Of a stretch of 64,000 bases of DNA, positions 3,917-58,655 are shown piece after piece; positions within the stretch are counted from its first letter, which is position 1, and every line of letters starts with the position of its first letter. The notes under the pieces are model-generated. The model was not told the origin of the DNA. It made no database searches and saw only the letters and a program-made list of their open reading frames with translations. Origin of the DNA: Eledone cirrhosa. Its lineage: Eukaryota. Where the stretch lies: positions 308,512,001-308,576,000 of the forward strand of contig OZ024740.1 of NCBI GenBank assembly GCA_964016885.1. Reading direction: 5' to 3'. A program made the position numbers and the translations under genes.

Positions 3917-4149
3917 AAAATAAAGAAAAACATCATTTCAGAAGGTAAATATTTATTGTACTGCTGGGATTATACTGTCGTACTACTCTGAGTTTTGCGA
4001 ATGTCGCTGGTCACGTTACGTGATTTAGCAAAATGCGAGAATATATACGAGTACTTTATATATATATATAATGTGTGAGCCCCTGGTTCATTCGGGGGGT
4101 AATCACTATAAGGTACTACTCAATAATACATTAGTAGAGTGTATATATT

Positions 4150-4345: not shown

Positions 4346-4570
4346 CACATACACATATATACATACAAATGTATGTATGTATATATATATATATACACAC
4401 ATATATATGTGTGTATGTGTGTGTATATATTCATATATGTGTGTGTGTGCATAGACATACACACACACACGAGCTGATACTTGTGAAAATTTCTTGATCT
4501 AATTAGAAACAACCACCAAGTATTAAAGATCAATATAATATTTTCAATGTTTTATTTATAGTTATTTATC

Positions 4571-12489
<7,919 letters not shown>

Positions 12490-13155: not shown

Positions 13156-13480
13156 TACTTGCCATCCCCTTTCCCCAACATGATCGACGTTTAAAAAAAT
13201 AATTTATCTTTTAGCTCTTTCTCCCCCACACACGTACGCTTTATCATCCCCTTTCCATTAAGACGGGAGATCTCCAACACCACCACCACCGCTCTCTTTC
13301 TCCCTCTCATACACACATACAGTCCTACCATCCTCTTTCCAGCGTAACAGATTTTTTTATACCATAAAAACACCAGCTTTAATGTAATAGATAGTAGATT
13401 AAAATCTCTCTCAATATATATATACAGAGAGAGAGGGTATATATATATATGTATATATATACAGAGAGAGAGAGAGAGAG

Positions 13481-13623
13481 GTCAGGATGGATTCAATTTG
13501 AAACTGGTTACACCATTATTCAACAGAGTACTCGATACTTGGGGTAGTAGAGTATAGTTATATTATAAAGAGTCGGGACCTGATGGCTGAGCTCTTGCCG
13601 TCGGGTCCCCACTCTTCATAATA
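13481..13623 (+). mobile_element. Short element, family B (GTACTCGATAC motif plus terminal hairpin)
   Basis: Motif at 13528-13538 followed by ttggggtagtagagtat, then an inverted repeat at 13561-13623. A reverse-complement homologue lies at 45010-45395 and a relative at 42681-42873. Confidence 0.7.
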
Positions 13624-14310
13624 TATATACATAGATACATAATCATGTAAAATGGTTAATGATAGGAAGGAAATTCATCTGTAGAAACCATGACTAAAAA
13701 GACACGATAATCTTTGTAGTGTCGGTGAAGGGATAACATTCTGTAAAGTGGTTAGTGAAAGGCTAAAAAAAAACAACTTGCGAAATGAAGGGTGAAGAGG
13801 ACACTTCAGTTGTGCCAAAGACATGACAACTCTCCTACTGGTGCAAAGCTAGAATGTACATGGGACACTCTGTAGAGCACGGTATGTGGGATGTGGGACC
13901 CTAGATCGTCCGAGAAGTCTGTAGATCTGATTGAAAATTGGTTTGTGAAGACCCGTCCAATACTTGTTAGCCGAGGAGGAGGGGGGGGGATGATGATGAT
14001 GATAGTAGAATATGATATGTGTATATCATCATCATCATTATTAAAATCCCGTTTTCCATGTTAGTAAGAGTTGAACATGTCGCCATAGACCGGTGAGAAC
14101 TCATGCGGGAGTCTCTGACCTCTACCAAGTGCATCTGATCGTGCCATGAATACTTGTGAGGTAGTTATGTTTTTTGGTATAGCAGAAGAGTCTTCGGTAA
14201 GATTATCTATTAACTGGTAGTCCTCAGCGAAATGTACATTACGGATTTTAATAAACCAAAACCAAATGAATATGGCCGCTGATTTATATATATATATATA
14301 TATATATATA

Positions 14311-14581
14311 AAGATGAAATCGAAAATGCAACCGAGGTCTTATTTAAAAAAATATATATATATTTATTTGGTTCCTTTACCGGTTTCGCAGTTCTTCTGC
14401 TTTTCAAAAGTAGAGTTGAGATGGAGGGTCTGTGGTTTTTCTGAGATGTGAGAAAAACCACAGAACCCCCCATCTCAACTCTACTTTTGAAAAGCAGAAG
14501 AACTGCGAAACCGGTAAAGGAACCAAATAAATATATATATTTTTTTAAATAAGACTCCGGTTGCATTTTTGATTTCATCTT
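14311..14581. mobile_element. Palindromic (fold-back) Penelope-like terminal repeat with a hammerhead-like motif in each arm
   Basis: About 130-bp arms that are near-perfect reverse complements, with a short spacer near 14443-14450. It directly follows (TA)n. A solo arm occurs at 17578-17705. Confidence 0.8.
14484..14519 (+). ncRNA. Minimal hammerhead-ribozyme variant (UUGAAAA core)
   Basis: ctt-TTGAAAA-GCAG(aagaa)CTGC-GAAA-CCGG-TA-aag gives stem I, a variant core, stem II, GAAA, a palindromic stem III and a GUA site. Confidence 0.55.
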
Positions 14582-14653
14582 TTTTTCTTTATACTTTCAC
14601 TCGTGTAGGACACCTCGATTATTTTTCATTTTGTAAAAAATCTTCGCTTTCTA

Positions 14654-14686
<33 letters not shown>

Positions 14687-14688
14687 TC

Positions 14689-14861
14689 CGTGTGTAGTTG
14701 ACGATCTAGAGGAAAGAGTACTGAATTCCGAAGTAGAATTTAAATATTCATTTTATTAAAGCTAAATAGTGAGTCTTGTTACTCTAGAGTTTCGCCTGGT
14801 GAGAAGCAGACGAAACTCTAGAGTAACGAGACTCACTATTTAGCCTTAATAAAATGAGTAT
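14689..14861 (+). mobile_element. Family A element with fold-back of the hammerhead 3' half
   Basis: 14690-14745 matches the reverse complement of 44945-45000. The hairpin at 14745-14861 contains GAAA-CTCTAGAG-TA-ac and AATAAA. Confidence 0.75.
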
Positions 14862-15019
14862 GTGTGTGTGTGTGTATATATATATATGATATCTCACGTA
14901 GAAATCATTTCTATAATAAAAAGAGAGAAGCTTATACTCGACTAACGTATTGAGTACCTTTTTTAACTGACGTGTCACCTCCCGATATACATCGGGAATC
15001 CACTTATTATATATTATAA

Positions 15020-15220
15020 TCTTGTCCAATGGGTAAGGCAAAAGCGGATACAGCCTGGCACCATTGTCGTCGCAACTCATTTCTACAACTAAGTAAACTG
15101 GAGGAACGTAAAATAAAGTGTCTTGCTCTAGGTCAGAACACCCACCCCTGGTCTGGAAATCGAACTCAAAACTTCACGATTGTGAGCTCAACGGTATAAC
15201 TACTAAACTACGCGCCTTCG
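15020..15220 (-). mobile_element. tRNA-derived SINE with CORE-like central domain (old copy)
   Basis: The minus strand has a B-box gagttcgatttcc and 'gagcaagacactttatttt...ctccagtttactt', similar to 52604-52943. Confidence 0.7.
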
Positions 15221-15224
15221 CGCG

Positions 15225-15231
<7 letters not shown>

Positions 15232-15268
<37 letters not shown>

Positions 15269-15475
15269 ACACCACACCACACCACACCACACCACACCAC
15301 ACCACACCACACCACACCACACCACACCACACCACACCACACCACACCACACCACACCACACCACACCACACCACACCACACCACACCACACCACACCAC
15401 ACCACACCACACCACACCACACCACACCACACCACACCACACCACACCACACCACACACACCACACACACACATA
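15232..15475. repeat. (CA)n plus (CACAC)n pentanucleotide microsatellite
   Basis: Read directly from the sequence. Confidence 0.95.
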
Positions 15476-15656
15476 TAATGTGTGTATGCATACCATAATC
15501 ATCCCACTGATTGAGTGCTCTTCAAATTTTTACCAAATTACACACACACACTATATATATATATATGAGAATCTCGTTTATATTAAAACTTTTATACTCC
15601 GCTATGTATTGAGTACCTTACTTACTGTGGTTACCTCCGATTCAACCCGGATAACT

Positions 15657-15700
<44 letters not shown>

Positions 15701-15939
15701 TAAAATAACAGATTAAAGTTTAAGCAAAGAATCGCTGCTTTCACCTTTAACGGGATCTTATATATTTGATATATATTTATCCTTATCGAGCCCTCTTTGG
15801 ATTTTAGTCTTCAAATTTTTATTATTATTATATATATATATATATATATAATGGAAAATTTGAACAGGAACAAAACAGAGAGGCAGTACAACGAATGTTT
15901 ATTAATTTCACGCTCTGGAGAGTGGGGTGGTGGTGGGGA

Positions 15940-15971
15940 ACGACGTTTCGGGCATAAGCCCTTCCTCAGGT
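15940..15971 (-). ncRNA. Minimal type-I hammerhead motif in a Penelope-like 3' end (element about 15851-16000)
   Basis: The minus strand reads ac-CTGAGGA-a-GGGC(ttat)GCCC-GAAA-CG-TC-gt, then AATAAA about 40 nt downstream, and ends in (TA)n. Confidence 0.7.
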
Positions 15972-16489
15972 GAGAAGTGTGTGGGAACAGAGTTCAAAGG
16001 GTGTGTAGGGGAGTGGTGGAGAGACATATAGCGAAAGGAAACGGTGCGAATGAAATTAAAAATAAAAATAAACCATGATCAAAATAAAAATAAATGAAAT
16101 AAAAATAAATATAAAAGCATGATCAAAATAAACTGAAATAGGGAGGGAGAGAGAGAGATTATCATTTAACGTCCGCTTTCTCTGCTAGCAAGGGTTGAAT
16201 GGGTCTTTACAGACCGATTCATTGTTCCAGCCGGGCAACTGATCTCGCTTACATGTATATTAAAGTGAAAGCAGCACATTGCAGGTTATGTCTTTGGCGT
16301 GCATATGTATGCATGCATATATTAAATTGAGAATTAAATGTTAAGAAAAAGGATTTATGAACGGCTTTTAATATTATAAATGTGCTGTATGTATGTCTGT
16401 ATGGTATGTATATATATATATATAAATACATATATATATATACACACACACACACATATATATATATGCATGTATATGTATATATGTAT

Positions 16490-17110
16490 TTATTATACTT
16501 GTATATATGTATTTTTATATATATATATACTTGTATATATGTATTTATATATATATATATATATACTTGTATATATGTATTTATATATATATATATACTT
16601 GTATATATGTATTTATATATATATATATACTTGTATATATGTATTTATATATATATATATATATACTTGTATATATGTATTTATATATATATATACTTGT
16701 ATATATTTATATATATATATATATATATATACTTGTATATATGTATTTATATATATATATATACTTGTATATATGAATTTATATATATATATATATACTT
16801 GTATATATGAATTGATATATATATATATATACTTGTATATATGTATTTATATATATATACTTGTATATATGTATTTATATATATATACTTGTATATATGT
16901 ATTTATATATATATACTTGTATATATGTATTTATATATATATATATACTTGTATATATGTATTTATATATATATACTTGTATATATGTATTTATATATAT
17001 GCATACTTTGTATATATGTATTTATATATATATAATACTTTGTATATATGTATTTATATATATATAATACTTTGTATATATGTATTTATATATATACATA
17101 CTTTATATAC
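16490..17110. repeat. Minisatellite TACTTGTATATATGTATT(TA)n
   Basis: About 20 tandem units with variable TA spacer. Confidence 0.9.
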
Positions 17111-17491
17111 ATGTATGTATTTATATATAAATACGTATATATATATATAAAAATAAATAAATACACACTCACATATAACAATAAGAATGGTAACAGTAGA
17201 AAGCTCAAATTCGTAAATTTCAAACTCAATGCGGTTTAATAGTCAGCTAATAGAACGAATAAATTCATCTAAGATATAATCCATATGGAATCAAGAATTA
17301 AAACATTAGGTAAACAGATCCTGGTTATTTAATGAGTCTAAATACACAGGATATTAATATGTAATAAAGCGAAAAATTCCAAGGGAATTTAAAACATTTT
17401 CATCATACGCGCGTTTTAACAATTGAAGTGCAAAGAGTATGGCTAATGGAAGATTTTCATTACAATGCAATCCAGTATGTAGAAGTGTGTG

Positions 17492-17577
<86 letters not shown>

Positions 17578-17583
<6 letters not shown>

Positions 17584-17705
17584 CGAAAATGCAACAGGAG
17601 TCTTATTTTTAGAAAAATATATATATTTATTTGGTTCCTTTACCGGTTTCGCAGTTCTTCTGCTTTTCAAAAGTAGAGTTGAAATGGAGGGTCTGTGATT
17701 TTTCT
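17578..17705 (-). mobile_element. Solo arm of the 14311-14581 family (hammerhead variant on minus strand)
   Basis: Near-identical to 14315-14442 and starts at a (TA)n edge. Confidence 0.8.
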
Positions 17706-17718
17706 CATAATTATAAAA

Positions 17719-18113
17719 GCGAGGAAAGATTTGACAAAGAATTACATATTTTTTCTTCTAAGTCCCTACTGCAGTTTCATCGACTGGTCTGCAGCAATAA
17801 TGTACCAGAGAAGTGCACCAACGCCGTCAGTTTATCGAATCTTCAAGGAGACCCCTCATTTTGTGGACTGTTTCCCGACCTGACCTTGTCCACGTGGTAT
17901 AGGTCTGTGGCGATTATTCCCGCAAGAGAAATAATCACTTTGTAACGGTCAAGTCAGAAAACAGTCCACAGCATGAGGGGTTTACTTGAAGATGCGACAG
18001 CCTCACGGCGTTGGTGCACTTCTCTGGTGCATCACTGCTGCAGACCAGTCGATGAAATTGCAGTAGGGACTTTGAAGAAAAAATAGGTAATTCTTTGTCT
18101 TTTTTTTCCTCGC
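17719..18113. mobile_element. Diverged palindromic element with hammerhead-like motif (expanded stem II) in each arm
   Basis: Arms 17719-17885 and 17947-18113 are imperfect reverse complements. Minus strand 17762-17853 reads gtctcc-TTGAAGA-tTCGA...TCGAt-GAAA-CTGCAG-TA-gggac. Confidence 0.7.
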
Positions 18114-18255
18114 ATTCATAATTTGATAATTAGCTCTGATTAAATGATTATTTTAATTCTTCTGTTTATTTTAACTCGTTCGGTCATTGCGCAACGCAGG
18201 TCAAGGTGGGACATTACACACACACATAGATGTGTCTGTGTGTATCTTATTACTT

Positions 18256-20824: not shown

Positions 20825-20871
<47 letters not shown>

Positions 20872-21104
20872 CGACAGGAGGCCGGCCAGGTTAAATTCCT
20901 TCAAACTTTTATGGAATTTAACCTGTCCGGCCTCCTGTCATTTTACTCTATAATATCATTGAACTCCGTTTCTGCACCACCCATAGGATTCAACATCACA
21001 GATGGATGAGTTGCGCAATGTCGAGTGCTTTCCTACTATTGCAACATGATTAACATTCCGGAATGACTGGTTCTATCGAGCGGTGAACCACCAAACTTAA
21101 ATGA

Positions 21105-24254: not shown

Positions 24255-24287
<33 letters not shown>

Positions 24288-24289
24288 CA

Positions 24290-24425
24290 TGTTATTAAGG
24301 GTAAATGAATCTTGTTACTCTGGTGTTTCGCCCGTTTATCACAGGGTCATCTTGTCTGTTAAAATGAATATTAAAACTTTACTTCGGTATTGAGTACTCC
24401 TTTCTCTCATCCGCCAACCATATAC
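24290..24425 (-). mobile_element. Family A hammerhead element (damaged core)
   Basis: The minus strand has GTACTCAATAC (24387-24397) ... GATGA-CCCTG(tgataaa)CGGGC-GAAA-CACCAGAG-TA-ACAAG...ccttaataa. Confidence 0.7.
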
Positions 24426-25003
24426 GGATATATATATATATGCGCACACGCACACACATATATATCGCACACACAGACACACTATCATCTCTATTTCACT
24501 GTCTAAAACGCAAGGAATGAATGATGTTTTCGTTGCTGTCTCAATCTGCTGGGAGTTCCCATTGCATTCCGTTAACTCCTCCATATTACTGCTTTGGCGG
24601 CGGGAGGGAGACTTCATTTGCCTGTTCCATTTTACTTTCGTTTCTTTTCGCCTTTTATATGTATTACTTTCCTCATTTTTCTTTTCTTCATATCTTTGTT
24701 TCTTCAGTCCTTCCTATTTTCTTTCTTTCATTCTTTTTGTTTCTTTCCTTTGTTTTCATTCACTTCTTCTTTTCTCTTTGTTTCCTTCTTTCGTTCTTTA
24801 TTCATTTTCCTCCTTTCGTTTTTTTCTTTCCTTTTTTTTCTTTCCATCTTTTTGTTTTTTTCATTCTTTTCCTCTTTCGTTTTTTCTTTCTTTCATTTTT
24901 TTCTTTCTATCTTTTTGTTTCTTTCATTCTTCGTATTTCTTTTCATTCGTTTAAACATATTTCTTTCCTTTTCTTTTTCATTTATTCCTGCTAGTAGTAA
25001 CAT

Positions 25004-32871: not shown

Positions 32872-33385
32872 TGACCAGACGGAATTCCCCTCTTCCCATT
32901 TGAAGGAGGTAAATCCCTCATCAGGGACGCCACATGCTGTGACATGTTCTCCGTCTCCAACTTAGTTACCTCGGCCGTCACAAATCCCGGTACCGCGGTT
33001 CGCAATGCAAAGGACAGGAAGACAAGCAAATACCGGAGCTTGTCATGCCGCTCCTCTTTGCACCGATCGCCGTCGAGACCTTAGGTGTCCCTGGATACCG
33101 GACAGCTAACCTCCGTAAAATCGATTCGATAGCAGCCCGTCTGAGAAGGGAACCTTGTGAGATGGGGCGGCTGTTGCAGCGGGTGTCGCTGGCCATTGTC
33201 CGCGGAAATGCTTTTGCCATTTTGTCCGTGGGGTGCAGCCGAAACACCGCTCTGACCTAGGTGTAAAGTCTGACACCCTCCCCCTTTCTTTTCTCCTTTG
33301 CCTCGTAGTTCTTGTGTCCCCCCCCCCCCCCCTCCGTCACTTTCCTCTATTTATGGCATTTATAGTCCTTTCCAATACCGCTTTC
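32872..33385 (+). pseudogene. CRE-like non-LTR retrotransposon fragment: restriction-like endonuclease domain plus 3' UTR
   Basis: PDGIPLFPFEGGKSLIRDATCCD...KTSKY...FAPIAVETLG...LLQRVSLAIVRGNAFAIL fits the PD..D-type RLE pattern of CRE-clade elements. Frameshifted. Confidence 0.8.
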
Positions 33386-34693
33386 TTTTTCTGTACGTTT
33401 AACCATTTACAAAAGCAAACGGACAATAACATAACTGATATCTTTTGAGTTGACCACTTCTCGACTACTTTTACAACAGACTTTCCTCCTCCCTTCTTTC
33501 TCCCAGTCGCTACCATATTGTTTCCCTCTCATACCGTTTGCCAATTGTCGCTCTTCGCTATTTCTTGTTTCTCTCTATCCTTTGTCTTTCTTTCCAGTTC
33601 CTTTCCTCCTAACGACCTCCCTTTCTCTCTTCTGTCTCATTTCCTTCTTTCACCCTCGTCTCTGTCTTTCTATCTAAACTACTTCTTTTTTTCTTCTCTT
33701 CAGTCTTAAAATACATTTGTCTGTGTGTATATTACGCTATAATATAACATCTTTGACAACAAGCCTTTACGCAAATATATCAAATTAGTTGCTAAATTCC
33801 CCTCAAATCACAGACAAAGGCGGGAGAGATTTAGTCCTAGATACAAATGTCTAAAAATAAAAATGGAATGTTTTAGATCTGCTGAATCAGGACTGACGCG
33901 AGTGTGGTAGCTACACCACTAATATTACTTTCGCCTTCGCCGCCAATATGACAGATGGAAGGGAAAAGAATTGCACCAGCACTGGGCTGGTACTTTCTTT
34001 ATCGATCCCGAATGGATGAAATGCAAAGTGGATCTCGGCACAGTGAGCTTTGAATTCAGAGCGCAAAGATGGAACACTTATCCAACGCTCTAACAGCTCT
34101 GCCAAATCAACCTGCTACTTCTACACTACTTATTATTATGACACCCTGACCCTCAGATATGGGGATCGTATGAGGCTACTACAAAACTATACATTATTTT
34201 GCTTCTTTCGTTGTTTGTAGTTTTTCCTTTTGAGTATATTTTTAATAGCGTGGATGTGAGAGTTATCAATCACACATCCACACTATTAAAACTATACTCA
34301 TCTACACTATTAAAACTGTTTATGACTAACTACATTGTCCAGCGTCTCTGTCACTTTTACATGTTATTTAAATGACATTTTACTGCTATTTCTAGCAGTT
34401 CGACAATCATGGGTTGTTGTTTTTTTAACTGTGTGAGTTGTAATGACTATGACATGTTTACGGCGTTGTTGAACTGTCCATCTTCACCAGTGTGAGTCCA
34501 GGCAGTAATGGAAAGTGATGTTTATACATCTAATAACAGTCCTGTTGGACAGAATGTCGACTGCGTCTGTTTTCTTTTGGCTTTCCTCCCCTCGTCTCAC
34601 TTCGCTCCTTTCCTACATCCCTTTCTTTCTCGCTTTGGTGTCATGTGACTCAGATGTCATTCGGAACACCTGTTTCGGATACTTTCCAACCCG

Positions 34694-39400: not shown

Positions 39401-41117
39401 CTTTTTTCTTTGCAGTTTCTCTCCCAGTCTCAGTAATTCTCAGTAATTCCTTAATTTTGGTGATGAAGTTACTGAAAACCTCAATAGTAAGAATTCTTTA
39501 TATTATCATTGGGGGTCATGAGGCTCATTCCAGATGTGTTATTGAGCTAACACCTGCAGCTCTTCAACAGATACAGTTTTACTGTAAGACTATATTTGAT
39601 TATATTTATTGACTTCTCCAATTCTTCCACAATGACATTCTCTCTTCATTGGTTAGCTCAACAATGATTTGATGACTGCTGGTAATATTTTGTCAGTAAA
39701 TTCCAGCAAGTCATTACAAGTATATTACCATAGCTTCTCCCAAACTCTTCTCAGGCAGTCCTTGGGTTACTTTATAACAGGTTGCTTTGATATTATCAAT
39801 GTTCACCATGATATGGTAGTTTGCCACAGATCCCTGCTAAATTGTTTATCTTGGTGATTTGTTTCTTCAACAAATTGTATGAAAGAGTGAAGGTAGTAGA
39901 CTTTGACATTGGAGTAAGGAAGTGTTGTTTAGTGTTAAGTAAATTACTTGAACAGAAATACATGCCTGAAGTGTGTCAATATTCTAGGTGTGGTCTGGAG
40001 TATTATCATCGCCAACAATGTTGTGTTCTTCATAATATTTTTTCAGGAATGGACAAGTGTATTGAAAAAAAAAAAAGAAAAAAAAAAAAAAATTTATAAC
40101 AGTACATTGTTTATCATATTACACTATTGTTATGGTTACAAAGATACCATTATATGAACATTGCCTCTTTGATAATTTTACAAACAAAACTTGGTTGATT
40201 TTGAAATCACAAGCAGACACATTTAACTTGAGAAATTTTCACCATGTGGTGTAAATGGCCTGTTTCTACTTTGAAACAAGAAGTGATTTTATTTCCTCCT
40301 TTAGGGATAAAAGTGTGGGATGGCATCATTTTTCAGAATAGACTTGTTTCATCTTCCCTGAGGAGGGTAGCTACCACTCTTAATAATAGTCTTAAGAACC
40401 CATGGACATTTCTTAGCTTCCTGGATGTCTGTACTTGCAGTTTCACTAGACAGTGATGTAAGAATGGTGTCATTGTTTGGATTTTTTAAACCAGCATCTG
40501 CTTGTTGAGAATGCTTCTTAATTATTCTTCTTGTAAATGCCTTAGGATGCTCCTTAGGTTAACTTTGTGGCATGTTGTGTTGCATTTTGTTGTCTGCCTA
40601 TATAGTAATTAAACTGTTCATTTTCCCCAAAAAATTTCGTCCATGGGTGAACACCCTTTTTTTACTGATAACAATGGGGGTTGTCATGACACTTATATTA
40701 TGTCTGCACTTTTTTTTTTTTGTTGATGTGGCTGAGATTTAAGACCACATACGCTTGACATTTGTCACCTTCCAATCCGCTAAACACTTGGAGTTTTACA
40801 ATCAGTGTGATGGTTTTACATCCATCCATTTATATATTAGGTATTAATTTAACAATGAAAATAATAACAAAGAAGTCGAGTTATTTTAATAGGCAAAATA
40901 ACTCGACTTTGTTGTTATATTTTCATTGTTAAATTAATATCTAACATCTGACTCTGTATCTAAGGAATTAACTCAGCGGAACACGGAAACTTTCTATGGA
41001 TTTCATTAGATTACTCGCGATCAGATTACATTGAGTCCTATCTACGGTTTGGACCCTACCACTAAGGGTAGACCACATTGAAACACTTTGTTCCATATAT
41101 ATATATATAGTTGTGTT

Positions 41118-42680: not shown

Positions 42681-42873
42681 ACGAAGGAAATGTGGTAAGG
42701 AACCAAGTGGACCATAACGCACCAAAGTACTCAATACTTAGGGTAGTAGAGTATGTAATAGGAACAAATAAGACCCCGACGGCTGAGCTCAAGCCGTTTC
42801 GACGGCTAATTCAGTCCAGAATTAGCCGTCGAAATGGCTTGAGCTCAGCCGTCGGGGTCTTATTTGTTCCTAT
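42681..42873 (+). mobile_element. Family B-related palindromic element with hammerhead 3' half
   Basis: GTACTCAATAC at 42727-42737. Arms of about 55 bp (42758-42812 and 42819-42873) with one mismatch. Flanked by (TA)n on both sides. Confidence 0.8.
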
Positions 42874-44625: not shown

Positions 44626-44849
44626 ATATATATATTGGTAAACGGAAAAGAAAATGCTGACAAATTGTTCCCAGTGAAAAATAGTTTAATTAGGAATAAG
44701 TAAAAATTAGTAATAGTATTGGTTAGTATTCAGTTTTGGTTTTAAGTTTTACCGGTTGCGCATTTCTAATGCTTTTCAAAAATAATTTTGAGATAGAGCG
44801 CCCGTGATGTTTGCTCTAATCTGAACATATATATATACATATACATTCA

Positions 44850-45000
44850 TTCATTCATTCATTTTATTAAGGCTAAATATTGAGTTTTGTTGCTCTGGAG
44901 TTTTGCCTGTTTATCACAGGGTCATCAGACAAAATCTTGTTGCTTTTAAAATTCTACTACGGTATTGAGTACTCTTTTCTCTCAGCTGTCAACCACATAC
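44850..45000 (-). mobile_element. Family A ~150-bp element: GTACTCAATAC, hammerhead, AATAAA
   Basis: Motif at 44962-44972, hammerhead at 44885-44934, then ccttAATAAAatgaatgaat. Confidence 0.78.
44885..44934 (-). ncRNA. Type-I hammerhead ribozyme motif (this copy mutated)
   Basis: TTTTGT-CTGATGA-cCCTG(tgataaa)CAGGc-aAAA-CTCcAGAG-cA-ACAAAA gives a 6-bp stem I and the canonical CUGAUGA. Sister copies supply GAAA, CTCTAGAG and TA. Confidence 0.75.
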
Positions 45001-45009
45001 AGATATATA

Positions 45010-45395
45010 TATATTATAAAGAGTTGGGACCCGAGGGCAAGAGCTTAGCCATCAGGTCCTGACTCCTTATAATAAAACCATACTCTACTACCCCAAGTAT
45101 CAAGTACTTGGATGATATATATAATGAAATTATTGTGTACAGTGCTCAGGTGCACTACAACTCATCAAAGGTGCATGTATAGTACATAGAATAATGTACA
45201 AATGTCAGGAAAATGAACAGTGTATGAGTCATGATATAATAATAATAATAATAATGAAATATTGTGTACAGTGCCCAGGTGCACCACAACTCGTCAAAAA
45301 GTGCATGTACAGTACATAGGGCAATGCACAAACATCAGGAAAATGAACAGTGCACAAGTCATGGTCTAACCAGTTTTAAACTCATTCTATCCTGA
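45010..45395 (-). mobile_element. Family B element interrupted by two tandem ~115-bp units
   Basis: 45010-45108 and 45360-45395 match the reverse complement of 13481-13623. Units at about 45121-45233 and 45251-45363 carry (ATT)n tails on the minus strand. Confidence 0.7.
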
Positions 45396-47255: not shown

Positions 47256-49745
47256 TCATACACATGGACACACAGGCACATAAACACAAACACACACACA
47301 CACACACACACATACATAACAGGCATGGATCTTGCTGCATCAATATAAAATTCTCTGCACAACTGCATCAGACTTTGGGCAATGGTTGTAAAAATGAATG
47401 TGAGTGTGGAGAGAGAGAGAGAGAGAGAGAGCGCGAGTGTGTGTTGAAAGAAGAGTGAGATTGAAGTGAGAGTGAGTGTGTGTGTGTGTGGAAACAGAAA
47501 AACATGAGGAAATCGGTTTGGAATTAATGTATGTGCCTGTGTATAAAAGACAAGTTAACCTGACTGCATGTAATTGTGTGTCATCTAATTCCTCCAATTA
47601 TCTATTGTCCACTACTGTTCTATGAGATTCTATGTGGTCAACTGACCTATGAGAAATCTCAGTCGGTCACATGGCTAGAATACCATTGATCATAAATTTG
47701 CTCTATGATGACAGGCCTGGGTCTAAACAACAGCCACTGTTCCAATATTTCTATCAGCCATCATCACCATCATCACCACCCAGTCTCTATCATCCTCTAA
47801 CTTTGTTCCATATGATGTCCTCTGACTTATGATGTAGCAGAGTATATCTAAAAAACATTTTATCATAGCACTAGTACTAGTGACTTTGCTTTGGGATTCA
47901 CAAGACTAAAGGGAACTTACACATTTATTATGCATTATAGGTGCAGCGAAGCCTTAAGATTTTAAGTTATGGAAAATGAGTCACTTGACATTCCAATAAC
48001 AAATTAAAAAAATACCTCATATATATGTACTATATATGTGTGGTGTGCATGTATATAATTCACATGCTTTTGGTTGGTAATGGAAGTTGTTCTGGGTTGT
48101 GCTGTATGCATATGCCAAGATCATGAGAGCAAACTATATATATATATATATATATATCATTATTGTCATTTTAACGTCTGCTTTCCCTGCTAGCAAGGGT
48201 TGGACGGGTCTATTATAGGCCAAGCCACTGATCCCCCAAACAAGCAAGCCAGGGATCTGTGTGACGCTTGCTTGACACCTCTGTCCAGGTCTTCCTCGGT
48301 CTATCTCTACTGCAGCTTCCATCCACTAGCATTTCCTGGCACTTCTTCATCTATCGATCATCTTCCATGCCCATTACATGTCAATACCAACGCAATTTTC
48401 TCTCCTGCACACCACCTCAGATGTAGCAATATTTAGCTAGTGGTAACTTTCGACTAAAGTCTTGCAAAGACCTCTTTAATTATTGCATTAGAGTTTTAAG
48501 TTTGACTGACTTAACCGAAGTTTCTCATGGCACACCTAATTGTACAAGTACAACTTTTAGCTTCCACTTAAAGACTTCTTGAGACCCTCTTGAAAGGTTG
48601 AGAGGTCTGTAAAAACATCTAAGTCTCTGCAAACAATGCAGATTAATGGGTTAGGTTCTGAACTTTTGTTATCTTTGAGAGGACAGTTTAATCATTGTAG
48701 ACTTGCATAACACTCTGTAGTTTGAGTATTTCTGTGACAGGCAGTTACAGAAGTTAGCATTAAGAAGACATTTTTAAAATGTTTTAAGTGTCGTTTAGAG
48801 TATAGTTTTTGTTTCACAACTCCATTACATAATATTTTACCAATTTACAACTGTTTTGAGGGTCATATTCATTCAAAACGTGTAAAAAAAAAACTATAGG
48901 TAAAACAGGTGTCACCTCCAAAGTAAAACTGGTGTAATATTCACCTCCAAAGCGAAAATATTTTAGCACCTCATTTGTGTAGAATTTAAAGTTAGTGAAA
49001 ATCGGCCAAATTTTGACCTTGAATACAATCTACCCATTTCCCATTTTAACATCTATTTTTTTTTTTGTCACATATTTCTCAGCTTCTACAAGATGAGTAT
49101 ATTCATCATCATTTTACGTCTGCTTTTCCCTGCTTGCAAGGGTAGGACGGGTCTTATTAAGCACGGAATCTTTCCATTCATCACAGTCCTTTGTCATCTC
49201 CTCTGATCGCTTCAGCGATCTGAGGTCTGCTCTCACCACCTCTGCCCATGTTTTCCATGATCTTCATCGACTGCGTCTTATTTCTACTGGGATTTCTTGG
49301 CACTTCTTTACCCAGTGGTCATCCTCCATGGCATCATATGTCCATACTAATGCAGTCTTCTCTCTCATACACTACAGTCTATCTCTCTTATACACAGTTT
49401 TTCTCTCAACTCGTCTATGCTTGGTCGTTCATGCACATTGACATTGCACATCCAACGGAGCATGCTTGCTTCATTTCTCTCCAGCCTTCGCATATCTGCC
49501 ACAGTTGCTGCCCATGTCTCACTACATAGTACATTACTAGAAATCCCATACGTTTTAAAACAAATAGGATGTGTTTAGGTCTCTATGTAAACTTAATGAC
49601 TAATTCTGGTTTTTAAAAATATCAATGAAGACAACATAGAAAAATAACCTATTTTCAAATCCAACCCCCAAGCTCTGCCTGCTTATTCCACCCCACCCTC
49701 GCTTATTCTACCCCCCACCTAACTGTTTTAAAATGGTTTCCACCA

Positions 49746-50089
49746 ATCATCATCATCATCATCATTTTACGTCCGCTTTTTCCCTGCTTGCAAGGGTGGG
49801 ACGGGAACTGATTCTGGCTTGATTTCTACAGCTGGATGCCCTTCCTAACACCAACCTCATTTACAGTGAGTGCTGAGTGCTTTTTTTTCCATGGCACCTC
49901 CACAACCACTTTGTAGTGGAATAATAGGGACCCCAGTCCCTATCATCTCATTTCTACAGCTGAGTAAACTGGAGCAATGTGAAATAAAGTGTCTTGCTCA
50001 AGGAAACAACACATCACCCGGTCTGAGAATTGAACTCACAACCTTTCGATTGCAAGGTCAATGCTCTAACCACTAAGCCATGTGCCTCC
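49746..50089 (-). mobile_element. Full-length tRNA-CORE-like SINE with RTE tail
   Basis: Reverse complement of 52604-52943 with few mismatches, and a (GAT)n tail. Confidence 0.9.
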
Positions 50090-51080
50090 ATGATAGTAAT
50101 TCATCTGATAGTAATTCATCTGAAAGATTGAATCAAATAGTTAGACTCTGTTTTATGTTTTACTTCAGTTACATTGACCTTCTTTTCCACATTCTTTTCT
50201 CACAATTCTTGTTTTCTATAAGTAACTGATAAATACTTTGATGACATTATTATGGATTGGGCAGTGGATTGGCAGTATTGGTAGAGCGTCAGACACTATG
50301 CTTTGCTGCAGAGAGTTATGGCCCTTTACGTTCTGAGTTCAAATCCCATCGAGGTTAACTTTTGCCTTTCATCCTTACGGGGGGGTGGGGGGGGGGGGGG
50401 CGATAAAATAAAGCACCATTAACGTACTGGGCTAATTGCTGGCCTTGTGTCAAAAGTAGAAACAATTATTATGATGACTAGATGAGGGCGATGTCTTCTC
50501 CCTCTTTCTGCCCCCCCCCCCCCACACACACTCTCTCTCTTTCTCTGTCTAAACAATTTTTCTCTGTACCTATATACATATCTCTTGCTTGGCGCACCCC
50601 CTCTCTCTATATAGATGGGGGCAACGTCATAACTTTCTGTATATCTACCTCTTTCTATCACCTTGAAAACACATGGCGTTCCTATTTCTCTATCTATGTA
50701 CATATCTTTTGCTTGGTGCTCCCCCTCTCTATATAAAGTGAGCGTGACAGATGGAGGGACAGACAGACAGACAGTGCTCTTATAATATAGATTACAATTA
50801 TGGGTTGGTCAGTTAAGGCCATTGACATCTCTCCCTTGCAATATATTTTATATATTTTGGTGTAAATAAAAAAATAAAAAATATCTGACATTACGCATGA
50901 GGCTTTAACTTCAAATAAAAGAAGACCTGTCCAATGTGTCTAGCTATTTTTAAGATGGCAAAGTGTGATTTGATTTTGGCTGTTATTTCTAGCCAGATTT
51001 ATAGTTAATTTAGTTTGTGACAATAAACATCTTGCTAGATATCTTAATTTTGTCTTATTTCCAGTCTATTTGCTGATTAA

Positions 51081-51300
51081 CCCTTTAGCATTTACATTAC
51101 TCTATATATATACTGCTGTATTTTTGTGGTAAAGGCTTTATCTTACATAATTATCACACATAATATTGAATCTATGAGATTGGGAGGTTATTTATTTTGA
51201 GAACCATACCTTAATGTAGGTATGAGCAGGCAGTTACAGTCAGTTTGAACAGAAAGAGAGAGAGTTCTGGCCGGATATGGCCGGTTTAAATGCTAAAGGG
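51081..51300 (+). mobile_element. piggyBac-type MITE
   Basis: TTAA|CCCTTTAGCATTTA ... TAAATGCTAAAGGG|TTAA. Confidence 0.9.
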
Positions 51301-51363
51301 TTAAAATAATGTGTATCATGAAACCAGGGGTAAGTTTTGGTAGTTTGGTATCAAATGAGTTAA

Positions 51364-51560
51364 CTCTTTTGCATTTAAAACGGCCATATCAGGCCAGAAT
51401 TCCCTCACCTCTTCCTGTTCAATCGGTCGCTCATACCAATGTTAAGGTACTGTTCTCAAAATAATTAACATCAAAACCTTGTAGCTTCGATATTATATGA
51501 GATAAAGCCTTTACCATGTAAATACAATAGTAAATATAGAGTAATGTAAATGCTAAAGGG
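51364..51560 (-). mobile_element. piggyBac-type MITE, same family, inverted
   Basis: TTAA|CtCTTTtGCATTTA ... TAAATGCTAAAGGG|TTAA. The body is the reverse complement of 51081-51300. Confidence 0.88.
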
Positions 51561-52603
51561 TTAAATTACCATCCTGCCTAGGTTATTCAGCCAAAGAAAC
51601 CATGCAGTAACTCCAAATATGAGTAAATGTAAAATGGTGATGAGAAAGGAAGGAGTGCTGAGTGGAGTATCTCTATGTGCTCCTGTGTGGAGAGTAACAG
51701 GGGCAGAGCCAAAGCAAGATTATCTGATACCAGCTAACCATGAATGTTATGTTAGTGTTGATCCACACTATCCATGCAAGAATATCATTACCACTACAAT
51801 AAACATTATTACTACTACCACCACCACTGCCAACTACTCCTACCACCGCCAACACTGCTGTTGCTACAAATTACCACTCCTCATCTTTCTTGATTTCATA
51901 AACAATCATGATGAAACAGCTAACAATATGATTTCCTTGTCAGTTTAAGAGGAAATTTGTAGATTTACAAGTGTTCATGATATACAACAGACCTTCCTAA
52001 AGCTTCACTGTTACAAATTTAACAGAGTTAATTCTTTATACAAATACCGTAATCTCAATTCCATACATCTTGCTTTGCTCTGTCTCTATGAATTAGATTT
52101 AAGATTTGATTATAACTGTTGCTGATGGATTTGTTCTTTGACCCTTTGAACATGAGCAGCTGAACTACCAGCTACTACAGTCTAGCATCCTTAATATGAA
52201 CAACTCATCTATCTGCCACCAAGTGATCTATCTAGTTTATAAAGAAATAAGCGACCTCCTGACCAATTAAAAGTTTTGTTTCATATTATGTATGGCTCAT
52301 AAGATCACAGAAAGTACAGTATGTCTATGTTTACAGGCATAAAACATTTACAGGCATAAAACAATCTTTTTTTTTCTAATTTGGTTCAGAAACCTAGTGT
52401 AGAAGTTGCAAACTATTCAGAAGATCAACAGTTAAAGGTTTAATTCTTAACATCCTGTACCACATGAAACCACATTAGCAAGACATTCCTGAAAAGTACA
52501 AAACAGCACTATGACTACATCACATAGAAAATTGAAAAATTTCTAAACATTCTGTCCACAAGTAAATATATTTTATACATTTGAATTAACAGACCTGTTA
52601 TCA

Positions 52604-52943
52604 GGAGGCACATGGCTTAGTGGTTAGAGCATTGGCCTTGCAATCGAAAGGTTGTGAGTTCAATTCTCAGACTGGGTGATGTGTTGTTTCCTTGAGCAAG
52701 ACACTTTATTTCACATTGCTCCAGTTTACTCAGCTGTAGAAATGAGATGATAGGGACTGGGGTCCCTATCATTCCACTCCAAAGTGGTCATGGAGGTGCC
52801 ACGGCAAAAAAACACCCAGCACTCACTGTAAATGAAGTTGGTGTTAGGAAGGGCATCCAAGCTGTAGAAATCAAGCCAGAATCAGTTCCCGTCCCACCCT
52901 TGCAAGCAGGGAAAAAGCAGACGTAAAATGAAATGATGATGAT
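52604..52943 (+). mobile_element. Full-length tRNA-derived SINE (A box, B box, CORE-like domain, RTE 3' tail)
   Basis: A box TGGCTTAGTGG and B box GAGTTCAATTC, then ccttgagcaagacactt. The 3' part (ctgtaaatg..gttggtgttaggaagggcatcc...gacgt.aaa (GAT)n) matches the RTE 3' UTR at 55450-55700. Confidence 0.9.
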
Positions 52944-53172
52944 CAGATATATTCTGCTAAATCACTGCAAGGTGTTAAGAATTAATAATAATAATTTAAA
53001 AAATCTGTTATTGGGGTTCATATGCCCTGATATTAGACTATTTTCTGTTAATATATAATGAAAGCTTCTGATTCTATTTTCTATATATATGTATATACTA
53101 TCATCAGCATTGTTTCACTGTCACTTTTACATCTGCTTTTCCTTGCTGGTATATATATGTATATATATATAT

Positions 53173-55224
53173 AACAGTAAGGTGGAGGAGTCAATTAAGT
53201 CCAAAAAGCAGGCTTGGAAAGTATGGCGGGATGGGGGAAGTAGAGAAGACTATCAAGTGGCCAGGAGGGAAGCTAGGAGACAAGTGTACTTCGCAAGAAG
53301 GGAAGCAGAGGAAAGAAAGTTCAAGCATGTTCTACAACGTGAGGACCAAAAGCGTGAGGTGTTCAGGATTGCTAGGCAATGTGTCAAGGAAAACCGTGAT
53401 ATTGTCGGGGAGAAGTGTGTACTTAATGATGATGGTATACTTGTCATTACTGACGCTGATAAGAAGGTAGCTTGGAAGTGTCACTACGAAAGGCTACTAA
53501 ATGAGGAGAACAAATGGGAGAAAGACAGTCTCCCCCACATCGACCCAATAGAGGGACCAGCAGTGTTAGTCGAAGGTAGTATAATAAGTAAGGCAATCAA
53601 AGATATGAAGACGGGTAAGGCGGCTGGGCCTTCGGAAATAGTTGCTGAGATGCTGAAAGCCTCTGGAACGGTGGGACACACCATGGTCACCCGGATAGTA
53701 AACCAAGTCATACAGAATGGGGTTGTTCCGAAGGACTGGCATAGCAGCATCATCATTAACTGTTACAAGGATAAAGGAGATGCCCTAGATAGGTGTAACT
53801 ATAGAGGCATTAAATTAATCGACCAGGTCATGAAGGTCACGGAAAAAGTAATAGCGCAACTAATCAGAGAGAGAATTGATCTAGATGAAATGCAGTTCGG
53901 GTTTGTGTCAGGCAAAAGTACCACAGACGCTCTTTTCATTGTACGACAACTACAGGAGAAGTACCTAGCTAAAAGTAAACCCCTATACTTAGCTTTTGTT
54001 GACTTGGAGAAAGCCTTCGACAGAGTCCCCCGTTCCATTATCTGGTGGGCTCTTAGAAAACTAGGTGTTGATGAATGGCTTGTGAGGGCTATACAAGCCA
54101 TGTATAAAGAAACAGTCAGCAAGGTTAAAATTAACAACGAATATAGTGAAGAGTTTAGCGTAAAAGTTGGTGTCCATCAGGGCTCTGTTCTTAGCCCCCT
54201 ACTATTTATTATTGCCCTTCAGGCTATAACAGAGGAGTTCAAGACCGGCTGCCCATGGGAACTCCTATACGCAGATGATCTAACGCTCATAGCTGAATCA
54301 ATGACCGAGCTAGAGAAGAAATTCCAAACATGGAAGCACGGCCTAGAATCAAAAGGCCTTAAAATTAACCTGGCTAAGACTAAAGTTCTAGTTTGTAGGA
54401 AAGAAAATAAGGCGGCGGTCCCTTCCGGGAAATGGCCATGCTCAGTGTGTAGGAAAGGCGTAGGTAGAAACTCCATTTTATGTCCCAAATGCAAAGTATG
54501 GGTGCATAAAAGATGTAGTGGGATCACAGGTAAGCTAACTAAGAACATAGATTTTACATGTGGCCGGTGCTCTGGTGCAATAAGTAGCAGCAAGTGCCCA
54601 TAAAATACTAGCTCTTTCAATTGCGCAGAGGGTTCTATAGAAATAGTGGACAGCTTCCGTTACCTGGGTGACAAAATCAGCAGTGGGGGAGGGTGCTCTG
54701 AAAGTACAGTAGCTAGAGTCAGAACTGGATGGAAAAAGTTCAGAGAGCTTATACCACTATTAGCCGCTAAAGGGTTCTCCCTAAAAATGAAAGGCAGGTT
54801 ATATGATGCCTGCATACGAACAGCAATGCTGCATGGCAGTGAGACCTGGGCATTGTGTGCAGAGGATATACACAGGCTAGAGAGGAACAAAGCTTGCATG
54901 CTCCGCTGGATGTGCAATAGTAATATACGTGAACGGCTAAGCATAAACGAACTAAGGAAAAAATTAGAAATAAGAGGGATCAGATGTTGTTTACTCGAGA
55001 GAAGGCTACGTTGGTATGGTCACGTGATGCGCATGAAAGACGACAGCTGTATAACAAAGTGCAGGGCAATAAAGATAGACGGTATCCACGGAGTAGGCAG
55101 ACCCAGAAAAACCTGGGACGACATGATAAATTCCGACCTCACACGCTTACACCTCTCCAAGACAATGTCACTGGACCGAGACCTTTGGCGGTACTCAGTA
55201 ATAGAGAAGACCCGCCTTACCTAA
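53173..55224 (+). pseudogene. RTE ORF: reverse transcriptase, PHD-type finger and C-terminal domain, with one in-frame stop
   Basis: Motifs NYRGIKL, QFGF, FVDLEKAFD, GVHQGSVLSPLLF and YADD (54268-54279). ORFs 53089-54603 and 54646-55224 are in the same frame, separated only by TAA at 54601-54603. Confidence 0.95.
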
Positions 55225-58326: not shown

Positions 58327-58655
58327 GCACACAGCCATATCATGCTGTAAACACTGCTTCACATTATCACTGAAGTTAAGCAGCATTTAGCTTGGTTAGT
58401 ACTTAGATGGGCAACCAATTGAGAAATCTAGGTGCTGTAACTGAGTCATCAAAAGAGCCTTTGTGCAGTCGCTTGACCTGCTAGAAATAGCAGCTAAATT
58501 TCCCTGAAATTGCACTTTGCCATCTTATAGAAGAACAAGACATATTCGATGTTGTACTCTTACACATACTAGAGAAGACATGACAGTCATGGTTGGAATA
58601 CCTTAAATCATAGGTCTGCTCAATTAGGGGTCACCTAGAGTTAAATAACAACAGT
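58327..58655 (+). mobile_element. 5S-rRNA-derived SINE (SINE3-like): decayed 5S head 58327-58442 fused to the repeat body seen near exon 1
   Basis: acagccatatcatgctg...atcactgaagttaagca...ggttagtacttagatggg...ggtgctgta matches metazoan 5S rRNA including the internal control region. It runs directly into gcttgacctgctagaaatagcagc...gttaaataacaac. Confidence 0.8.

Follow-up and report, generated by a model that had tools for sequence, protein, structure and literature searches.

A decayed hammerhead insertion in the octopod Eledone cirrhosa, probably derived from the 3' end of a Penelope-like retrotransposon

We have analysed a 64-kb window of Eledone cirrhosa DNA (the whole stretch under study), repeat-rich eukaryotic sequence with long (TA)n runs, in which a sequence-only reading had described positions 44850–45000 as a minimal complete unit of ~150 bp carrying an 11-mer, a CUGAUGA hammerhead and a poly(A) signal. 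All three parts are located, the 11-mer at 44972–44962, CUGAUGA at 44928–44922 and AATAAA at 44868–44863, and a type I hammerhead layout surrounds the CUGAUGA box on the minus strand (Table 1), the 11-mer running opposite to it. The insertion is bordered by microsatellite on both sides, within which target duplications are unreadable at this locus.

Table 1. Features of the insertion at 44850–45000 and of its two relatives in the window
Feature	Position	Strand	Basis
Stem I 5' strand, UUGU	44929..44932	-	read from sequence and descriptor
Hammerhead core C3-A9, CUGAUGA, intact	44922..44928	-	sequence and descriptor
Stem II region, unpaired C.C at base replacing G10.1-C11.1	44905..44921	-	fold and descriptor
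G12-A15.1 box, AAAA in this copy, G12 lost at CpG	44901..44904	-	descriptor
Stem III, CUCCAGAG, imperfect palindrome	44893..44900	-	descriptor and aligned pieces
Cleavage triplet, GCA in this copy, GUA in family	44891..44893	-	descriptor
Stem I 3' strand and downstream arm; stops short of tail	44857..44890	-	sequence and copy comparison
ACAA (stem I 3' strand)	44890-44887	-	sequence
AATAAA	44868-44863	-	sequence
Private junction between modules	44933..44945	.	depth and internal repeat
Element 3' tail, inverted relative to hammerhead	44946..45002	+	joints, loose ends, colinear left arm of 14.8-kb copy
11-mer GTATTGAGTAC, tail motif common to unrelated short elements	44962..44972	+	window searches
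AC-rich loop (44990-44998), weak 4-bp stem, element 3' end	44986..45002	+	read from sequence
(TA)n and (ATTC)n microsatellite flank	44826..44856	.	sequence
(TA)n flank, tail end	45003..45014	.	sequence
Second copy, same layout, core split by 9-nt inversion at 24350-24358	24286..24428	-	
Third copy, without CUGAUGA; 14745-14860 is a near-perfect 116-nt fold-back about loop II	14686..14860	.	

A relaxed type I descriptor returned a single match in the window, the 44850–45000 copy, and none in 300 dinucleotide shuffles, a test favourable to the motif as the descriptor was drafted after the motif had been seen. The copy carries two core changes, G12 to A at 44904 and U16.1 to C at 44892, and thus lacks the intact CUGANGA/GAAA/NUH core of the family majority. 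The consensus proposed earlier, UUGU-CUGAUGA-GAAA-UA-ACAA, therefore holds at this locus for UUGU, CUGAUGA and ACAA, AAAA and GCA being found in place of GAAA and GUA. The G10.1-C11.1 pair closing stem II is also missing, a C.C mismatch occupying its place in both window copies that retain the site and in the family majority; the remainder of stem II consists of 5 bp (44920–44916 with 44910–44906, minus strand) and a 5-nt GAUAA loop. Rfam hammerhead families gave no match in the window at gathering score, none at 44700–45150 with E values up to 10 and none at 13400–18200. The copy folds no better than its own shuffles (z -0.03 to -1.2), and its forced hammerhead fold reaches -3.1 kcal/mol compared to -9.3 kcal/mol for the best fold. 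Loss of G12 by itself abolishes hammerhead cleavage. Judged from its letters, the copy is probably unable to self-cleave, and the stretch probably represents a dead remnant of ordinary kind rather than a complete small unit of circular RNA; it is a poor choice for the experiments for which it had been recommended as the best starting point. The ancestral RNA would fold into a type I hammerhead requiring dimer formation or protein help.

Two further copies were found in the window by BLAST and nhmmer. At the split core of the 24.3-kb copy a UCUUGU 6-mer also adjoins CUG (24350–24358). In the 14.8-kb copy a mirror image of the 3' half of the core stands in place of its 5' half, generating a 116-nt hairpin which folds with z = -18 against shuffles and bears the tail on its left arm only. 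Inverted 5'-truncated arms and a tail of ~55–60 nt at one end only are present in all three copies, each with a different junction, and CUGAUGA is whole in one of the three, that at 44850–45000. The consensus previously derived from them is a composite, since the copy that supplies CUGAUGA is not the one that supplies the perfect palindrome: the 8-nt palindrome assigned to stem III, CUCUAGAG, is confined to the 14.8-kb copy, whose two mirror arms both carry it and are non-independent, and the other two copies have CUCCAGAG and CACCAGAG. The colinear arm of the 14.8-kb copy (14686–14800) places the AC-rich loop 80–88 nt and the element end 92 nt past the cut site, and has stops in all three frames. 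Tandem Repeats Finder detected no array of copies in the window, all three being solitary.

The insertion belongs to a repeat family that is abundant in the animal's DNA. Four of ten sequencing runs (X1, X3, X8 and X9, X3 bearing a second organism label) were aligned to 44857–45000 at 80% likeness, yielding 2,717 and 1,070 contig pieces for X1 and X3 and 1,596 and 1,815 reads for X8 and X9, respectively; as depth is not copy number, the repeat is graded only as abundant. Exact-pattern scans for the family detected no outside locus in metagenome contigs or viral contigs. In X1, summed depth is ~48,000–52,000 along a large part of the arm and rises to 50,000 on the tail, yet falls to 182 at the join (44937–44941), which is therefore peculiar to this locus. 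Depth does not end at the cut site (44891), as would fit an uncleaved template. Among the 15 joints listed (of 55), ten link the 3' end of the arm to 44946–44962 on opposite strands and none is head-to-tail; further opposite-strand joints connect 44883–44902, 44887–44932 and 44904–44932. Of 389 loose ends, the 24 listed include ends at 44946, 44949 and 44999: those before 44946 end in ...AATAAAATGAATA, those before 44946 and 44949 finish in AATAAAATGAAT sequence, and beyond 44999 they continue into (TA)n in both X1 and X3. Combined, the joints and loose ends give a native order of hammerhead, AATAAA, 11-mer, AC-rich end and (TA)n on one strand, an order which the left arm of the 14.8-kb copy displays directly.

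At 44850–45000 the two modules lie on opposite strands, joined back to front with the tail flipped. The description of this stretch as a minimal complete unit is consequently not sustained, since hammerhead and 11-mer module run in opposite directions and are linked by a private join. Positions 44944–44933 at the join repeat the cut-site region 44894–44883 in 10 of 12 letters, a 12-nt repeat that may have arisen by template switching; a 50-nt mini-circle formed from the duplicated cut-site piece was set aside in view of the private nature of the join (depth 182). The AATAAA hexamer is followed by ~65 more element bases and then by (TA)n, not poly(A), and its role as a poly(A) signal was rejected. 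Upstream of stem I, loose ends at 44925–44932 agree over only ~5 letters (agreement 0.45–0.69).

Family letters were deduced from the aligned pieces, letter changes being taken from the 40 rows listed of 68. GUA is present in 84–91% and G12 in 59–66% of aligned letters, so that the GAAA and GUA previously written for the family are those of its majority. The family form of the stem I 5' strand is UCUUGU, 44933 being changed from A to G in 79–99% of aligned letters at low depth. At 44897, X1 and X9 show no change, all their G>A places being accounted for elsewhere and the palindrome-making G>A being below 5% (in X3 and X8, two places and one place are unlisted, respectively). Thus, stem III of the family is CUCCAGAG and not the perfect palindrome, with a predicted homoduplex of -7.2 kcal/mol for the majority 10-mer compared to -13.8 kcal/mol for the perfect form. 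Similarly, a G>C change of at least 5% occurs nowhere in X1 or X3 and C at 44921 is therefore the family letter. The expectation that the fold suits dimer cleavage nevertheless stands, the motif being type I with a short near-palindromic stem III, a trait shared with the Penelope-like hammerheads described in PMC4209133.

A core no more conserved than its flanks had been named as an outcome that would refute the complete-unit reading, and for genomic copies this is the outcome obtained. G12 lies in a CpG (C11.1-G12) and is lost in 36% of X1 letters compared to 43% at the tail CpG at 44987, both values being overestimates, since it is the decayed letter that stands in the query; at the CpG partner positions, loss is 19% at 44905 and 13–14% at 44961 and 44988. 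All but two changed places in X1 are accounted for outside the non-CpG core, indicating that non-CpG core letters vary by less than 5%, as do non-CpG flanks. In genomic copies the core is thus without special protection, the catalytic G12 decaying like other CpGs. Dead insertions would be expected to lack such protection, and little about the master element can be learned from this.

The 11-mer is a polar 3'-end tail motif, not a 5' part. GTATTGAGTAC has seven exact matches in the window (255, 14947, 15606, 24387, 37059, 42727 and 44962) and nine within one mismatch, where 1.9 are expected. All seven exact sites are 31–50 nt upstream of a TA run, compared to 12% of random positions that lie within 8–70 nt of one, and by our own reading of the comparisons the carriers form at least three groups with unrelated bodies. 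Near-matches at 4126, 13538, 14728 and 45097 behave like the exact ones. A bulged hairpin around the 11-mer, aligned across ten window tails, pairs in 84% of cells with no two-sided change and shuffles perform equally; the hairpin thus receives no support from covariation. A literature text search with the 11-mer letters returned no transposon paper by title among the matches listed.

Other hammerhead-like cores with inverted arms are present in the same window. A second hairpin group, with a GC-rich palindromic segment resembling stem III and the same tail motif, occurs at 42758–42873, 13527–13620 and 45010–45108, the 42.8-kb element being a perfect 116-nt fold-back. A third family has a hammerhead-like core of the minimal U3-A8 type (GAAA-CCGG-UA; 14310–14582, 17597–17687 and 44748–44794), and a decayed copy of it adjoins 44850–45000, the three families being clustered at 44750–45110. 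A minimal hammerhead core at 15946–15969 on the minus strand (CUGAGGA, 4-bp stem II, GAAA-CG-UC) is textbook-looking, solitary and apparently intact, and an inverted repeat with 188-nt arms at 17709–18123 contains hammerhead-like halves in which a U.U mismatch closes a long stem II. Further fold-back elements are found at 51077–51564, 40834–40947, 20870–20942 and 34231–34300, and ~8 kb at 4563–12487 is nearly pure TA microsatellite. Among plus-strand features, 53062–55221 encodes a non-LTR reverse transcriptase with a PHD-like finger (Pfam RVT_1, E 2e-32) and one stop at ~54600, which we take to be RTE-like, not Penelope-type. The frame at 32943–33257 is without Pfam match, its end motif presumably being that of the restriction-like endonucleases of CRE-type retroelements. 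A short frame at 2004–2130 is presumed to be the first coding exon of an ASAP-type Arf-GAP, for which Pfam and PDB searches gave no confirmation. Degenerate 5S rRNA-like (58327–58443) and tRNA-like (52611–52674) sequences are probably SINE heads or pseudogenes.

We consider it reasonably probable that the locus is a decayed insertion in which a hammerhead arm adjoins a tail of inverted orientation. Its likely source is a Penelope-like retrotransposon with endonuclease, of which it would be the 3' end (pseudo-LTR) truncated on the 5' side, and it probably does not self-cleave. The near-palindromic stem III, inverted truncated arms, one-ended tail, TA targets and spacing of the AC-rich end lead to this reading, and an AT-rich or microsatellite target without a poly(A) tail is likewise a trait of the family. 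According to published accounts, Penelope-like elements carry hammerheads in their pseudo-LTRs with a palindromic helix III and weak, dimer-dependent cleavage (PMC4209133; dimer-cleaving Penelope hammerheads are also cited in PMC6765202), mostly as single truncated motifs, with decayed versions numbering thousands in many animal genomes (PMC4209133). Their insertions include inverted truncated copies with a one-ended tail (PMC8557442; PMC8969392), 5'-truncated inverted copies with such tails being Penelope signatures for which self-priming at palindromes has been proposed (PMC3846280). In the Anolis Poseidon element, the cut lies at +26 and an AC-rich stem-loop at +111–118, 85–92 nt further on, is where reverse transcription begins; targets are AT-rich and hammerhead cleavage is dispensable in vitro (PMC11167929).

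By analogy with these elements, a GIY-YIG nuclease would nick (TA)n DNA and reverse transcriptase would start at the AC-rich end of an uncleaved RNA, 44986–45002 being the candidate start site, although its weak stem is absent from the minimum-energy fold of the 44850–45000 copy. Some 90 nt would be copied up to the hammerhead, where the new DNA, being self-complementary, could snap back or switch template, producing a head-to-head insertion with a tail on one end that would subsequently decay without selection. Against the Penelope-like reading, no long common upstream sequence is seen, loose ends agreeing over ~5 letters; the tail is ~55–60 nt compared to 30–40 bp in print and the AC-rich stem is weak; and G10.1-C11.1 is absent, Rfam gives no match and the colinear arm is closed in all frames. 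No Penelope reverse transcriptase or GIY-YIG open reading frame was found in the 150 frames scanned of the 292 filtered from the window.

Several of these points bear equally on a less favoured but still serious alternative, in which the master is itself a short (~145–150 nt) non-coding element of pseudo-LTR origin that extends from stem I to the AC-rich end and is mobilised by Penelope protein in trans. Upstream of stem I, copies do appear to stop within a few bases (loose ends at 44925–44932), all frames of the colinear arm are closed, the frames scanned hold no Penelope sequence, and pseudo-LTR sequences are described as sufficient for mobilisation in trans (PMC3846280). However, an internal Pol III B box is lacking from the 44850–45000 copy, even with one mismatch allowed, and no two copies share a junction. 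A long master would yield equally short copies if snap-back took place at the hammerhead, and its long copies could be hidden from view, given that Logan contigs end at branch points and that RAD reads cover few loci. If a short master were responsible, the size given earlier would be about right and the order of parts wrong.

A rather more doubtful extension of the Penelope-like reading is that the hammerhead fold acts at the DNA step and not as a cutter, its helices promoting cDNA snap-back or self-priming, and that the 11-mer is a common signal for Penelope protein. Six hairpin elements in the window with hammerhead-like halves were compared: two centre on loop II (14.8 and 42.8 kb, the native loop of the latter not being independently known), two (13.6 and 45.04 kb, which may derive by deletion from a single master) on a stem III palindrome, and the last two (14.4 and 17.9 kb) upstream of the core. 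This distribution of fold-back centres is suggestive only, and no paper tying inversions to hammerhead helices was found in a search of the open literature. If correct, hammerhead snap-back would explain both the inverted repeats of Penelope elements and the copies halting at the hammerhead, and an 11-mer serving as a protein recognition signal would offer a direct handle on the insertion mechanism.

The earlier assignment to a non-LTR retrozyme monomer, whereby a tandem repeat is transcribed, cut into monomers by the hammerhead and circularised, now appears very improbable. The hammerhead is type I, GC content is low and the size falls at the lower edge of the 150–450 bp range (PMC7229834); the C.C at the base of stem II need not be fatal, as helix II of an active axolotl retrozyme hammerhead has U.U mismatched at its base. 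However, the solitary state of all three window copies, the absence of a head-to-tail joint from the 15 listed of 55, the running of tail ends into (TA)n and the private layout at 44850–45000 are all contrary to this assignment. Equally improbable is a fold-back or MITE-like DNA element with an incidental resemblance to a hammerhead, as the near-perfect 14.8-kb hairpin (z = -18) and blank Rfam result that could suggest it are opposed by the unequal arms, one-ended tail and variable junctions, by restoration of GAAA and GUA in the family majority and by the lack of a descriptor match in 300 shuffles.

The single locus at 44850–45000 matters little, decayed hammerheads of the Penelope type being common in animals. 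With C.C mismatched at the base of stem II, the family's hammerhead is an additional variant, and its copies are natural material for investigating what the hammerhead does in Penelope elements and how inverted arms and a one-ended tail originate.

The motif and the family are real and the unit is incomplete. Animal non-LTR retrozymes resemble the family in being small, non-coding and low in GC with a type I hammerhead but are head-to-tail repeats expressed as circles (PMC7229834), whereas the copies described here are solitary, inverted and (TA)n-ended. Naiad Penelope-like elements, reported from Octopus spp., share (TA)n targets, inverted copies, a tail and high copy number but, as characterised in PMC8557442, are without the canonical hammerhead which the family has; the main text of two octopus repeat papers, in the portions available, lists Penelope families and does not mention ribozymes. 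Closest are the pseudo-LTRs of EN+ Penelope-like elements (Penelope/Poseidon, Neptune, Nematis and Hydra clades; PMC4209133, PMC8557442), which likewise have a type I hammerhead whose helix III is short and near-palindromic, occur mostly as single truncated motifs spread through the genome, and show inverted truncated arms, one-ended tails and microsatellite targets. The family differs from these in having C.C in place of G10.1-C11.1, a 4-bp stem III that is longer than in minimal motifs, a tail of ~55–60 nt and no linked open reading frame among the window frames scanned. Relative to the Anolis carolinensis Poseidon element (PAc; PMC11167929), stems I and III are more developed in the family, and the AC-rich region starts an open reading frame in PAc whereas the one colinear arm of the family is closed in all frames; conversely, both have AT-rich targets, an apparently uncleaved template and an AC-rich end past the cut at nearly the same distance, 80–92 nt in the family and 85–92 nt in PAc.
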